Shown here: positions 39,523 through 42,237 of the stretch, piece by piece
Layout: every line of letters starts with the position of its first letter
How positions within the stretch are numbered: position 1 is the first letter of the stretch
Source: Escherichia coli
Lineage (GTDB): Bacteria; Pseudomonadota; Gammaproteobacteria; Enterobacterales; Enterobacteriaceae
Assembly (NCBI RefSeq): GCF_003790525.1
Contig: NZ_CP033635.1
Reading direction: 5' to 3' (one strand)
Length of the DNA: 64,000 bases
Translations under genes and position numbers: made by a program
Notes under the pieces: generated by a model
Database searches by the model: none
What the model was told of the DNA's origin: nothing
Seen by the model: the letters and a program-made list of their open reading frames with translations, nothing else

Positions 39523-40254
39523 ATGAATCAACCAATACACAATGCTTACTGGTTATCCCGTTTTGACAGCCTTCTCAACAGTGCCCTGGCGCAACACCGT
39601 GCCGTTTCGTTAATCCGGGTGGATTTACGTTTTCCTGAGTATATGCCTGCCACCATTATGGATACCGATTTAGATTCAGCGGTGATTTCTCGTTTTTTCG
39701 AATCCCTGAAAGCCAAAATCCAGGCTTACCAGCGGAAAAAACGACGTGCCAACAAGCGTGTGCGTGCAACCACCCTGCATTATTTCTGGTGTCGGGAGTT
39801 TGGCAAGGAAAAAGGCAGGAAACATTATCACGTGATATTACTGCTCAACAAAGATACCTGGTGCTCGCCAGGGGATTTCACCGTTCCTTCTTCGCTGGCG
39901 ACACTGATCAAGCTGGCATGGTGTAGTGCTCTGCATCTTGAGCCCTGGCAGGGTAATGGACTGGTTCATTTTTCCAGGCGGACGCCTTTCCGTAAACCGA
40001 CATCATCTGATGCTCGCCCTTCTTCCGATGATACGCCTTTGTCGGGTGGATGTTCTGATACCAGGAAGGCTTCAGACAAAAAGCCGGGTGAAGCCGCTGT
40101 TCTCTGGATCAAGCGTGGTGATGTGGAAGCGCTGCAGAAAGCCCGGAACAGAGCCAGTTATCTCGTGAAATATGAGACGAAGCAGCATGACGGTTCCGGG
40201 CAACGTAATTATGGTTGCAGTCGTGGGCCGGGGCGTCTGCTGGATGGCAGGTGA
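39523..40254 (+). CDS. Inovirus Gp2-like / YfjJ-YagK family protein
   Basis: 243 aa; motif VSLIRVDLRFPEY shared with two downstream paralogues. Confidence 0.65.
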   Translation: MNQPIHNAYWLSRFDSLLNSALAQHRAVSLIRVDLRFPEYMPATIMDTDLDSAVISRFFESLKAKIQAYQRKKRRANKRVRATTLHYFWCREFGKEKGRKHYHVILLLNKDTWCSPGDFTVPSSLATLIKLAWCSALHLEPWQGNGLVHFSRRTPFRKPTSSDARPSSDDTPLSGGCSDTRKASDKKPGEAAVLWIKRGDVEALQKARNRASYLVKYETKQHDGSGQRNYGCSRGPGRLLDGR

Positions 40255-40610
40255 GCCCTGTAAAACGACATCCGGTGCCTGAGCTTATGCTACAGGACGT
40301 TGGCTGACGCCCTTAGCTCGTTTTCTGAAAAAGTCGTCCTGAAGTCATGCAACGGTATTTTTCTCTGCTTTCGCTCCTGGAAACACTCCGTCGGTAAAAC
40401 CTTACTGTCCTGCTTAATGATGTGAACCGAAGTCAACGGAGAGCATTCATTCTGAACCTGCATCCGGTGTTCTGTCCCTTGTCGGTTACCTGATCTTCCC
40501 GTTCTGCCGCGGTTTTTCACTTATTCCATCAACCCCATACGCAAGCCATAACACGTCAGCGCATCCACGGGCAGGACGCGTTGTGGGCTGCGTATAACGG
40601 AACATATCTT

Positions 40611-41183
40611 ATGAATGCTATCCCTTATTTCGACTATAGCCTTGCCCCCTTCTGGCCATCTTATCAGAACAAAATCATCGGCGTTCTCAACCGTGTGTTG
40701 CGCGAGCAGTCCTGCTCCCGAATACGGCGGATCCTGCTTCGTCTGCCGGGGGAACATGGCAACATCTTCAGCGACAGAAAAACCTGGTTCGGTATGGCCT
40801 TTATCGAAACCGTCAGTGCGCTGATGAATGCAACCCCCGGACGCGACCTCTGCTGGCTCCTGACACGTCATCCTGAAAAACCGGAATACCACGTGGTGCT
40901 GTGCGTCAGACAGGAATATTTCGACGGCCCTGAGCTGGACCGGTTGATTCTGGATGCCTGGAGCAACGTACTGGGCTTCGCGTCACCGGGTGAAGCAGCA
41001 CCGTACCAGAAACAGATAACCCGGGATGTGGTGCTGGACAGTTGTTCACCGGACTGCGAAGAGAGACTCAAAGAGCTGATATGGGCGTTCAGTGATTTCG
41101 CCCGCGATCGTCGTGGTGTGCGCGATCCGGAAGCCCGTTACCTCGCCGGTAATCCCTGGTATCCCGTAGCAGGCCAGCTCTGA
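40611..41183 (+). CDS. Inovirus Gp2-like / YfjJ family paralogue
   Basis: From the ATG at 40611 (MNAIPYFDY...); motif RIRRILLRLPGEHG. Confidence 0.6.
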   Translation: MNAIPYFDYSLAPFWPSYQNKIIGVLNRVLREQSCSRIRRILLRLPGEHGNIFSDRKTWFGMAFIETVSALMNATPGRDLCWLLTRHPEKPEYHVVLCVRQEYFDGPELDRLILDAWSNVLGFASPGEAAPYQKQITRDVVLDSCSPDCEERLKELIWAFSDFARDRRGVRDPEARYLAGNPWYPVAGQL

Positions 41184-41251
41184 AAGCTCAGCTCAGCAGA
41201 TTCACCCGCATTTGCCCAACATTCATAAATCTCACAGAGGACATTCTGACC

Positions 41252-41488
41252 ATGTTGACCTCAATGACAGGTCACGACAGCGTATTGCTGCGTGCCGACG
41301 ATCCCCTGATCGACATGAACTACATCACCAGCTTCACTGGTATGACCGACAAATGGTTTTACAAGCTGATCAGTGAAGGCCATTTCCCTAAACCCATCAA
41401 ACTGGGGCGCAGCAGCCGCTGGTACAAAAGTGAAGTGGAGCAGTGGATGCAGCAACGAATCGAGGCATCACGAGGGGCAGCAGCATGA
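41252..41488 (+). CDS. AlpA-family regulator
   Basis: 78 aa; HTH FTGMTDKWFYKLISEGHFPKPIKLG; RBS AGAGG. Confidence 0.7.
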   Translation: MLTSMTGHDSVLLRADDPLIDMNYITSFTGMTDKWFYKLISEGHFPKPIKLGRSSRWYKSEVEQWMQQRIEASRGAAA

Positions 41489-42237
41489 AACGTGTTGTAA
41501 TGCCGGTACGCTGGCAATGTGCAAAATACCAGCGTTGGTATTGTGGAAATCAGCCCTGTCCCTGGTGCTGGCGACCTGCTGCCCCCGTCTGTCATTCCTC
41601 GTTCTTCGCTGTAACAGGCATCGTACCGGTCTCGGCGTGCTTTCCTGCGTACCGACACCGGTTCAGCAACATTCAAGGGGATCAAATCGTGCAAATAACC
41701 GAAACCGTACTTTCAGAGCCGGTGGAAATCCGGCGTTTTATTCAGCAGGCGGTGGATCACTGGCCGCGTCTGCTGGCCGTCCACTTCACACTCCATTCGG
41801 CAGAAGGAAACATCAACGGACAACAGATTCATGCATTCTGTACTTCCTTTTACCGACAGGTGCACGAGCGTATTACTGAACGTAATCACACGGCCAGTCC
41901 AGCACCACCGGTGGTATTACGCTGGTTGCGGGAACAACATGGAGGAGCAACAATGCGATGCCTGTTGCTGCTCAGCCAGACGAGCATTTGCCATCCACGG
42001 GTCAGTGCCACGGTTGATGAAGAATGTTCGCAACGGGTGGATTTATTGCAACAGACATGGCGGGTGATAAGTGCTGACGGACAATGCCGGGTGGAAAGGT
42101 GTTTTCAGGCTGCCCGGGGTGATACATCCGGCCAGTATATTGCGTTAAAAACAGTTGCATTGTCTCTGGGGTTACCGGTTGTGACCGGTATTACCCATCG
42201 CCCGGTACAGCGCTGTACATTGATTACAGCTCAGTGA
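41485..42237 (+). CDS. Inovirus Gp2-like / YfjJ family paralogue (third copy)
   Basis: ATGA overlap with the alpA stop; motif WPRLLAVHFTLHSAEGN. Confidence 0.5.
   Translation: MKRVVMPVRWQCAKYQRWYCGNQPCPWCWRPAAPVCHSSFFAVTGIVPVSACFPAYRHRFSNIQGDQIVQITETVLSEPVEIRRFIQQAVDHWPRLLAVHFTLHSAEGNINGQQIHAFCTSFYRQVHERITERNHTASPAPPVVLRWLREQHGGATMRCLLLLSQTSICHPRVSATVDEECSQRVDLLQQTWRVISADGQCRVERCFQAARGDTSGQYIALKTVALSLGLPVVTGITHRPVQRCTLITAQ

Follow-up and report, generated by a model that had tools for sequence, protein, structure and literature searches.

The closest described relatives of the locus reported here are the YfjJ and YagK proteins of Escherichia coli K-12, encoded by the cryptic prophages CP4-57 and CP4-6, respectively. 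In CP4-57, yfjJ lies directly downstream of alpA. The K-12 AlpA protein is an activator of the CP4-57 integrase gene intA, and Vis of P4 is a related regulator. A comparable neighbourhood is found in the SRL island of Shigella flexneri, where a Gp2/YfjJ-like gene adjoins an AlpA/Vis-like gene (orf39-orf41) and the pair is followed by unannotated ORFs and a YeeP/YfjP-type GTPase gene (orf39-orf46; PMC6980539). In Pseudomonas, the tmRNA-integrated islands I23, I44 and I55 are reported to have a Gp2-like protein and AlpA among their likely core functions (bioRxiv 10.1101/2024.08.29.610337). More distant points of comparison are the HUH initiators, among them filamentous-phage gpII and plectrovirus ORF2 (PF23343) and the SIRV1 ORF119 Rep protein (PDB 2x3g).

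The locus lies in a 64,000-nt stretch of E. coli DNA, referred to below as the window, and has the following features:

39460..39527, + strand: leader and 5′ end of ORF1, repeat copy 1, with a Shine-Dalgarno-like GGAG and an ATG (direct repeats D2/D3, pairwise alignment).
39523..40254, + strand: ORF1, 243 aa, YagK/YfjJ ('inovirus Gp2') family, with intact HUH and YxxK motifs (Pfam, BLASTP, PHROG, residue conservation).
40394..40456, + strand: leader repeat copy 2, a degenerate ORF1 leader and first codons, ATG changed to CTG (direct repeats, pairwise alignment).
40611..41183, + strand: ORF2, 190 aa, divergent Gp2/YfjJ paralogue (PGAP start ATG 40611; hhalign, BLASTP).
41252..41488, + strand: AlpA-family (excisionase-type helix-turn-helix) regulator, 78 aa (PF05930, PHROG, BLASTP).
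41485..41688, + strand: small Cys-rich ORF (MKRVVMPVRWQCAKYQRWYCGNQPCPWCWR...), its start overlapping the alpA stop as ATGA (comparison with related islands).
41689..42237, + strand: ORF3, 182 aa, GTG start, UCP030791 (PF27752) (homologue starts, PF27752, hhalign).
42207..42247, no strand assigned: 17-nt inverted repeat I2 across the ORF3 stop (88% complementary, 7-nt loop).

The ORFs and their motif strings are present in the sequence (ORF1 at 39523-40254, ORF2 ending at 41183, the alpA-like gene at 41252-41488), and the reading frame is open from 41443 to 42237, spanning both the small ORF and ORF3. As judged from sequence comparison, the module combines a rolling-circle-type (HUH) nuclease gene that is intact, two old copies in which catalytic residues have been lost, and, as regulator of excision, an AlpA-type gene; CP4-57, the SRL island of Shigella and elements like them belong to the same family of islands. 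The module differs from the K-12 systems in having three family copies, two of which (ORF2 and ORF3) fall below the Pfam threshold and lack the full catalytic set. The place of ORF2 is occupied in the SRL island by an Hha-like gene between YfjJ and AlpA, and extra degenerate paralogues are not identified in the SRL and Pseudomonas descriptions. All three proteins are already labelled 'Inovirus Gp2 family' in public databases; the RefSeq name of ORF2, and often of ORF3, is 'hypothetical', and an NCBIfam search returned no family for any of the three.

ORF1 is a clear member of the YfjJ/YagK family. It matches PF11726 (YagK_YfjJ_C) with 126.6 bits (E=1.2e-36), well past the gathering cut-off of 25.8, and it also matches PF23343 (E=1.1e-9) and PHROG replication-initiation families (best E=4.4e-7). 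In BLASTP it is 30% identical to K-12 YfjJ (E=6e-26), relative to which it carries a low-complexity insertion of ~45 aa. Three rolling-circle Rep motifs are kept, namely the RVDLRFP strand, HYH and YxxK; all 34 family members compared have the HUH histidines H101 and H103, the YxxK residues Y213 and K216, and K220. Pairwise dN/dS for ORF1 is 0.20.

The relationship of the other two proteins to ORF1 is visible mainly at the level of profiles. The first-pass annotation had described three Gp2/YfjJ-like paralogues sharing a block that resembles R-x-DLRFP. Pairwise BLASTP is marginal on this point (E=0.028 for ORF1/ORF2, E=0.029 for ORF1/ORF3, no match for ORF2/ORF3), whereas comparison with profiles of the Gp2 family is significant for both ORF2 (E=5.6e-6) and ORF3 (E=2.1e-13). 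Because the motif blocks line up in the profile-profile alignments, they are a true shared feature rather than a chance likeness, and the description is borne out by Pfam for ORF1 and by hhalign for ORF2 and ORF3. On these alignments, ORF1, ORF2 and ORF3 are real, distant paralogues of the YagK/YfjJ ('inovirus Gp2') family, with the qualification that the profile matches of ORF2 and ORF3 denote superfamily-level relatedness and not strict Pfam membership.

For ORF3, no match to PF11726 was obtained at E<=1. ORF3 and its near-identical homologues carry the UCP030791 domain (PF27752), whose family name has no function attached: proteins that share 97-99% identity with ORF3 have precomputed PF27752 matches, and PGAP uses the UCP030791 name for the same protein cluster, the current product name being 'UCP030791 family putative phage-derived protein'. 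The ORF3 family aligns with the Gp2 family in hhalign over 149 columns (probability 98%, E=2.1e-13), and the HMM matches are reciprocal, the ORF3 model reaching Gp2 proteins down to E=3e-19 and the Gp2 model reaching ORF3-like proteins down to 1e-10. By this alignment, ORF3 is a Gp2/YfjJ paralogue of ancient origin in which neither the histidines that bind metal nor the nucleophilic tyrosine survive. The HUH position reads M89-R90-C91 in ORF3 and I/C/M-R-M/C across the UCP030791 family. At the position of the tyrosine ORF3 has S159, where the family has Q or S, and Y150 close by varies among Y, L, F and H. ORF3 thus lacks both catalytic motifs of the HUH initiators. Motifs specific to its own family are kept (DHW/YPRL, PPxxLRW, LLLxxQ/N and HPR), and the Rep-type fold may be kept as well. 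In a predicted model of ORF3, the segments equivalent to motif I, HUH and the tyrosine fall on a strand, a strand and a helix, as in Rep domains. A Foldseek search with this model gave no match below E=1e-3 in PDB or BFVD. In a sequence-profile search of PDB, the Gp2 and UCP030791 alignments had no match to any solved structure, the HUH initiators included. What is added here for UCP030791 is a remote relationship to PF11726, seen in profile similarity and with the HUH motif lacking, and a synteny of its genes with alpA and a canonical Gp2 gene that extends across Enterobacterales.

ORF2 is probably non-catalytic as well, to judge from its motifs. Its HUH site is half kept, with E92-Y93-H94 (EYH) in place of HYH; E92 is invariant in the ORF2 family and H94 is found in 13 of 14 members. 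Compared with the HUH initiators, ORF2 thus has one histidine and no aligned or conserved tyrosine, Y177 varying among Y, C and H.

Given the loss of catalytic residues, one alternative is that ORF2 and ORF3 no longer have a function and persist as decaying Rep duplicates that travel with the island. In keeping with this idea, dN/dS for ORF3 is relatively high (0.30-0.63), which shows rather weak constraint on that gene as estimated from pairwise comparisons; frameshifted or truncated variants are frequent in databases, and the neighbouring genes are in many cases pseudogenes (ProQ/FinO and IS remnants, for instance). However, ORF2 has a dN/dS of 0.00-0.28, the two genes occupy near-equal numbers of places in E. 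coli genomes (3092 and 3148), and UCP030791 proteins from different genera, at 23-32% overall identity, keep the invariant or near-invariant residues D23, P26, H24, R78, W124 and R143, which random decay would not preserve. Decaying pseudogenes were therefore judged the less likely explanation, from dN/dS and from the conservation of motifs across genera, and we consider it unlikely that ORF2 and ORF3 are without function.

A second alternative is that there are only two true paralogues, with ORF2 an unrelated orphan whose likeness to the family is spurious or convergent. ORF2 does score below the PF11726 gathering threshold of 25.8 bits (11.5 bits, E=0.29); its hhalign probability against the Gp2 family is 86-88% (E=3.4e-6 and 5.6e-6), not above 95%; and an AF2 model built from its shallow alignment has a pLDDT of 37.6. 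A direct comparison of the ORF2 and ORF3 families was not significant, and their relatedness is therefore transitive only, through the Gp2 family. On the other hand, the ORF2-Gp2 alignment is colinear over 115-118 columns with the motifs in register, RILLRLP falling on RVDLRFP, EYHVVLC on HYHVILL and LILDAW on MIxQAW, although it spans residues 13-127 of ORF2 only and the ORF2 alignment is shallow (Neff 1.4). None of 300 column shuffles (mean 14.3, sd 2.8, maximum 25.9) reaches the observed score of 43.1 (E=5.6e-6; z ~10), and the reversed control scores 11.8. An independent BLASTP match to K-12 YfjJ (E=8e-4 over 159 aa) points the same way, as do a match of the ORF2 HMM to a Yokenella Gp2 (E=7e-5) and a UniRef entry that is identical to ORF2 and already named 'Inovirus Gp2 family protein'. 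An orphan origin for ORF2 is accordingly improbable. The ORF2 homologues found are all from E. coli, and the protein is almost confined to Escherichia.

With ORF2 and ORF3 taken as distant paralogues, control of island excision and replication can be inferred as the function of the module, and its parts may act as follows. By analogy with the action of K-12 AlpA on CP4-57, AlpA would switch on excision of the island. ORF1 would nick excised or resident island DNA at an origin, leading to rolling-circle replication or mobilisation, and ORF2 and ORF3 could be non-catalytic accessory or regulatory subunits that bind DNA or bind ORF1. A search of the literature on YfjJ, YagK, UCP030791 and PF11726, and on AlpA together with HUH and islands, found no functional (biochemical or genetic) study, and the nicking and replication role of ORF1 is one predicted from its conserved motifs and from the names of its families. 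With PADLOC, the module had no match to a defence system, apart from a weak one for AlpA. The regulator of the module shares the PF05930 domain with K-12 AlpA and P4 Vis, but no integrase gene is adjacent to it, and no integrase of this island occurs within the 64-kb window; the module may therefore be inactive here.

Alternatively, the entire family, ORF1 included, might consist of sequence-specific DNA-binding regulators of island genes, in which the HUH and tyrosine motifs serve for binding only. Autonomous replication is not known for these islands, the genes adjoin a transcription regulator, and two paralogues, ORF2 and ORF3, do without catalytic residues. That H101, H103, Y213 and K216 never vary among the 34 Gp2/YfjJ members is nevertheless the signature of an active site and not of a binding surface, and the matches to phage replication-initiation families argue in the same direction, which makes a purely regulatory family rather improbable. 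We thus favour an enzymatic ORF1. A more specific proposal, which we offer tentatively, is that ORF2 and UCP030791 (ORF3) are Rep-fold pseudo-enzymes that have given up catalysis and been retained as subunits conferring specificity or regulation on island excision and replication, perhaps acting with small zinc-ribbon proteins on upstream iteron-like and leader repeats; the active HUH protein and the inactive paralogues around alpA would then form an undescribed conserved control unit of Enterobacterales genomic islands.

The gene between ORF2 and ORF3 is AlpA-like, as had been annotated from the sequence: its product matches PF05930 with 40.8 bits (E=2e-10; gathering cut-off 21), the PHROG family 'excisionase and transcriptional regulator' (E=6e-10) and K-12 AlpA (25% identity in BLASTP, E=4e-6), and its pairwise dN/dS is 0.04-0.14. 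Translational coupling of this gene to the third paralogue had also been suggested. The ATGA overlap exists at 41485-41488, and in this window the frame from that ATG runs into ORF3, giving the 250-aa gene call for ORF3; the coupled frame, however, is that of the small Cys-rich ORF, and the conserved start of ORF3 lies 200 nt downstream. ORF3 homologues begin at the position of GTG 41689 (as 'MQITEAL...'), a start called by PGAP in every related genome examined. Outside the lineage of the window, the ATG-started frame ends after 37-52 codons in 12 of 13 related islands (the script did not locate the ORF3 start in the 13th, L040), and in the lineage of the window deletions of 16 and 38 nt (54 nt in total) have removed the stop of the small ORF. 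Because the small ORF is separate in these 12 islands and ORF3 has a conserved start, the overlap belongs to the small upstream ORF. The 250-aa call is, on this comparison, a lineage-specific in-frame fusion.

The small ORF resembles Zn_ribbon_11 only in its Cys pattern and in its position between alpA and UCP030791. Against PF11682 (Zn_ribbon_11), an intact version from a related island scores 10.9 bits (E=0.38), below the 24-bit cut-off, and the version in the window, in which the first CxxC is degenerate (C15Y), has no match. Its 30-codon core has a dN/dS of ~0.23 over seven distinct versions. Fusions of zinc-ribbon and UCP030791 proteins occur at the C-terminus in P0113 and at the N-terminus in this window, and the fact that the two are neighbours in distant islands and have been fused in two independent ways suggests that they may be functionally linked.

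The first-pass annotation regarded a triplication as unusual and as a sign of diversifying selection, and neither view survived a wider survey. DNA of ORF1, ORF2 and ORF3 is present in 1878, 2180 and 2183 of 5426 complete E. coli genomes, where it occupies 2510, 3092 and 3148 places, with up to 6-7 per genome. Nine E. coli or E. coli-like loci were retrieved with upstream sequence long enough to show the whole module, and all nine have the order Gp2-ORF2-alpA-ORF3; eight further E. coli loci with short flanks show the end of ORF2, alpA and ORF3 where the flank allows. Beyond E. coli, the order Gp2-AlpA-...-UCP030791 is kept in Siccibacter, Tenebrionibacter, Yokenella, Hafnia, Serratia, Yersinia and Superficieibacter, and 14 of the 20 loci whose flank was long enough, representing eight or more genera, have two Zn_ribbon_11 genes between AlpA and UCP030791. 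The Gp2-AlpA-UCP030791 grouping is therefore, by its synteny, old and conserved across Enterobacterales. Selection on the module genes is purifying rather than diversifying, as estimated by dN/dS, which is below 1 in all four; with intact copies in thousands of genomes, this indicates that the four genes are maintained.

The leader of ORF1 is also found twice. The copies at 39460-39527 and 40394-40456 (D2/D3) are 74-76% identical, and the second sits ~155 nt upstream of ORF2. Copy 1 precedes every 243-aa-type ORF1 fetched; copy 2 precedes ORF2 in all eight loci that have ORF2 and a sufficient flank, some of them in islands that begin with another type of Gp2 gene. A recent local triplication of Gp2/YfjJ, in which the copies diverge through diversifying selection and the third of them is translationally coupled to AlpA, is very improbable. 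In its favour, the proteins are paralogues, the second leader is a trace of a duplication, and the ATGA overlap is real with its frame open into ORF3. Against it, identity between the copies does not exceed ~26% over short stretches, Gp2 and UCP030791 form a pair that is kept in different genera, dN/dS is 0.1-0.6, about 40% of complete E. coli genomes have the arrangement, and the frame coupled to AlpA is separate from the conserved ORF3 start at 41689 in 12 of 13 other islands.

The arrangement of ORF1 to ORF3 is thus ordinary, and recent triplication is rejected. We consider it reasonably probable that the segment is a conserved 'Gp2-AlpA' backbone module of enterobacterial genomic islands, working by the mechanism proposed above, and not a local gene amplification. 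Such a module is very common and is already annotated as island backbone; the modest gain is that ORF2 and ORF3, 'hypothetical' in RefSeq, appear to be remote, catalytically degenerate relatives of the HUH-type YfjJ/Gp2 proteins. E. coli islands of this kind carry toxin-antitoxin, anti-restriction and adhesin genes, and if the inactive paralogues do regulate excision or replication, they would offer a handle on the mobilisation of these abundant elements.

Scans for noncoding signals added little. No origin or nick site for ORF1 was identified other than candidate repeats. A cluster of TAAGYRTT repeats lies at 38457-38615. Promoter and terminator scans gave site numbers not above those of shuffled sequence. 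Folding of two intergenic regions was no better than shuffles (z=-0.78 for the one at the small ORF, z=-0.37 for the other), and an Rfam search of 37800-42800 at E<=1 returned nothing except one chance-level match. The inverted repeat I2 lies between ORF3 and a convergent ProQ/FinO-family pseudogene and is possibly a transcription stop, as its pairing and position would allow.

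The three Gp2/YfjJ-like ORFs lie in a 3.8-kb region shared, at 98-99% identity, with chromosomal islands in numerous E. coli strains, and PGAP annotates four genes across the module in the matching genomes, all in the same orientation. The module and its neighbours in the window are:

37846-39522, ORF-free region upstream of ORF1, 1.7 kb, 34-41% GC
39523-40254, + strand, ORF1, 243 aa, PGAP 'inovirus Gp2 family protein'
40611-41183, + strand, ORF2, 190 aa, PGAP 'hypothetical protein'
41252-41488, + strand, AlpA-family/helix-turn-helix regulator (alpA), 78 aa, PGAP
41485-41575, small Cys-rich ORF (MKRVVMPVRWQCAKCxRWYCGNQPCPWCWRH...), overlapping the alpA stop by ATGA
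41689-42237, + strand, ORF3, 182 aa, PGAP
42255-42766, - strand, frameshifted ProQ/FinO-family gene, convergent with ORF3 (PF04352, E=5e-17 for a 100-aa piece)

PGAP names ORF3 variously 'hypothetical', 'YagK/YfjJ domain-containing' or 'inovirus-type Gp2', the latest being 'UCP030791 family putative phage-derived protein'; in UniRef, entries identical to ORF2, to ORF3 and to the 250-aa sequence already carry the name 'Inovirus Gp2 family protein'. The ProQ/FinO-family gene is intact in some related islands (loci L004, L034 and L040), and a 17-nt inverted repeat (42207-42247) spans the ORF3 stop.

By sequence, ORF1 is an unambiguous Gp2/YfjJ member (PF11726, E=1.2e-36; PF23343, Rep ORF2/G2P, E=1e-9; K-12 YfjJ, E=6e-26, 30% identity) that also matches phage replication-initiation PHROGs. 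BLASTP comparison of the three window proteins with one another is marginal (E=0.028 and 0.029, and nothing for the third pair). At the profile level, the alignment of ORF2 homologues is colinear with that of Gp2/YfjJ across 115-118 columns (E=3.4e-6 and 5.6e-6), scoring 43.1 against 14.3±2.8 for column-shuffled controls (n=300, maximum 25.9) and 11.8 for a reversed alignment; BLASTP of K-12 YfjJ likewise matches ORF2 (E=8e-4, 159 residues). A shallow, E. coli-only ORF3 alignment reached just E=1.5e-3 against the Gp2 family; with distant full-length relatives (23-32% identity) added by exhaustive profile search, the match has a probability of 98% and E=2.1e-13 over 149 columns, nearly the whole protein. 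HMMs of the two families match each other's members in the fetched loci (best 3e-19 in one direction, 1e-10 in the other), and 4 of 10 distant ORF3 relatives have sub-threshold but colinear PF11726 matches. Because the profile alignments superpose the blocks VSLIRVDLRFPEY, RIRRILLRLPGEHG and WPRLLAVHFTLHSAEG, the first-pass annotation was right to describe three paralogues with a shared motif block. Structure is compatible with paralogy but unspecific: an AF2 model of ORF3 (pLDDT 72.7) has strands at the motif-I-like and HUH-equivalent segments and a helix at the Tyr-equivalent segment, Foldseek with this model gave no significant match, and AF2 modelling of ORF2 failed to yield a usable structure. 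Overall, the identities and homologies of the module proteins are well supported.

H101, H103, Y213, K216 and K220 (ORF1 numbering) are invariant across 34 Gp2/YfjJ members and represent the HUH and YxxK motifs known from rolling-circle initiators. ORF2 has E92-Y93-H94 at the HUH position, and its sole nearby tyrosine, Y177, varies (Y/C/H) in close homologues; ORF3 has M89-R90-C91 (I/C/M-R-M/C in the family), with S159 (Q/S in the family) aligned to the catalytic tyrosine. By these residues, ORF1 looks catalytically competent, and its paralogues ORF2 and ORF3 resemble derivatives that have lost catalysis.

The Gp2/UCP030791 duplication is ancient, since gene order is kept outside Escherichia. 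ORF3 relatives there occur in the order Gp2/YfjJ, AlpA, two DUF7828/Zn_ribbon_11 genes, UCP030791 and DUF2913; genera with the Gp2/YfjJ-AlpA-UCP030791 order include Siccibacter, Tenebrionibacter, Yokenella, Hafnia, Superficieibacter, Serratia and Yersinia, and a canonical Gp2 gene lies upstream of UCP030791 in 14 of the 20 loci with enough flank. The tandem pair of DUF7828 + Zn_ribbon_11 genes between alpA and UCP030791 (L011, L012, L013, L016, L018, L022, L023, L026 and L030) is found at about 5000-5900 in each locus, or 1373-2274 in L022, and the UCP030791 gene is often followed by a DUF2913 gene. ORF2 is an addition to the set and is almost confined to Escherichia. Every fetched E. coli-type locus with sufficient upstream sequence has the order Gp2-ORF2-alpA-ORF3, and short-flank loci show ORF2 end-alpA-ORF3 as far as the flank reaches. 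The first gene is either the 243-aa type or a distinct 188-aa Gp2 type with an HAH motif, which suggests that the catalytic member is swapped like a cassette, with ORF2-alpA-ORF3 unchanged. The 188-aa type (HAH, YLAKEEQK; L004:1088-1654, L005:1094-1660, L006:1110-1676) matches PF11726 and PF23343 slightly below threshold.

The triplication had been called unusual and taken to suggest diversifying selection, and neither proposal holds. Among 5426 complete E. coli genomes, DNA of ORF1, ORF2 and ORF3 is present in 1878 (2510 places), 2180 (3092 places) and 2183 (3148 places), respectively, with a maximum of 6-7 places per genome; the module is an island backbone that is very common and has been annotated before. 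Pairwise dN/dS is 0.20 for ORF1, 0.00-0.28 for ORF2, 0.04-0.14 for alpA and 0.30-0.63 for ORF3, that is, purifying selection, weakest for ORF3; at the level of whole genes nothing points to diversifying selection.

The same annotation had the AlpA-like gene translationally coupled to the third paralogue. The overlap itself stands: the ATG at 41485 shares bases with the alpA stop, and the window keeps this frame open through the ORF3 end (250 aa). Coupling to ORF3 does not. Overall, the original observation is partly confirmed and its interpretation partly supported, paralogy being the part that holds. ORF3 homologues begin with 'MQITEAL...' where the window has GTG 41689, which has a Shine-Dalgarno-like GGGGA 7 nt upstream, and in distant relatives the first helix lies at a comparable distance from the start. 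The ATG in related islands opens a separate ORF of 37-52 codons, MKRVVMPVRWQCAKC(Q/R)RWYCGNQPCPWCWRH..., ending before ORF3 and often in another frame. This small ORF (37-51 aa), rarely annotated, is also present in L004, L006, L007, L033-L037, L039 and L040; its 30-codon core is under purifying selection (dN/dS ~0.23, seven distinct versions, synonymous TGT/TGC changes at Cys codons), and a 26-nt deletion destroys it in two islands. In its Cys pattern the small ORF is similar to the C-terminal ribbon of the Zn_ribbon_11 proteins found at the same interval in distant islands (just E=0.38 against the Pfam model), and it may encode a miniature zinc-ribbon protein that is coupled to AlpA. In the lineage of the window (the window, L001, L002 and L032), two deletions, of 16 and 38 nt, drop the small-ORF stop and fuse the small ORF in frame to ORF3, and the first CxxC is mutated to CxxY (C15Y). 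A 250-aa fusion protein may be made in this lineage. In other E. coli strains, Zn_ribbon_11 is instead fused to the UCP030791 C-terminus (protein homologue P0113); two different fusions hint at a functional link between zinc-ribbon and UCP030791 proteins.

The DNA around ORF1 and ORF2 retains a trace of duplication: 39460-39527 (68 nt; the ORF1 ribosome-binding site, ATG and first codons) is repeated at 40394-40456 with 74-76% identity and CTG in place of the ATG, some 155 nt ahead of ORF2. This copy is kept in all islands examined, even where the other Gp2 type replaces ORF1. The ORF-free region, conserved in 1878 of the 5426 genomes with no annotated feature, is a possible origin or regulatory region; it has seven TAAG[TC][GA]TT repeats inside 160 nt (38457-38615; TRF period 13 at 38502-38567). 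Of the heptamer GTAAAAC the window has 21 copies against 7.3±2.4 expected (threefold), 7 of them in the 3.1 kb around the module (38214-41362). All three repeats are candidate binding sites.

A literature search found no functional study of the Gp2/YfjJ and UCP030791 families, and published descriptions go no further than listing Gp2-like and AlpA genes among island core genes. Because of the analogy to K-12 AlpA/CP4-57 and the Rep-type motifs, we hypothesize that this is most likely an excision/replication control module. AlpA would trigger island excision, and ORF1 would nick an origin, so that the island replicates by rolling circle or is mobilised; ORF2 and ORF3, plus the zinc-ribbon proteins in other islands, would serve as non-catalytic partners or regulators.

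The wider setting is a typical E. coli island, with DUF4942, a CbtA/YeeU toxin-antitoxin pair, RadC, an anti-restriction protein, DUF932 and a YeeP-type GTPase on one flank, and a YadA-like adhesin, IS elements and cargo genes on the opposite one. Two convergent ORFs of 329 aa (+) and 279 aa (-) occupy the stretch from the GTPase gene to the ORF-free region (36020-37845); they are labelled 'hypothetical' in RefSeq and without Pfam, PHROG or PADLOC match. A separate element, unrelated to the module, lies at tRNA-Leu(CAA) (20979-21063, - strand), spanning 13964-14240 and 19562-21063; it carries a P4-type integrase (19562-20827) and C4 antisense and isrK RNAs (Rfam, above gathering scores).
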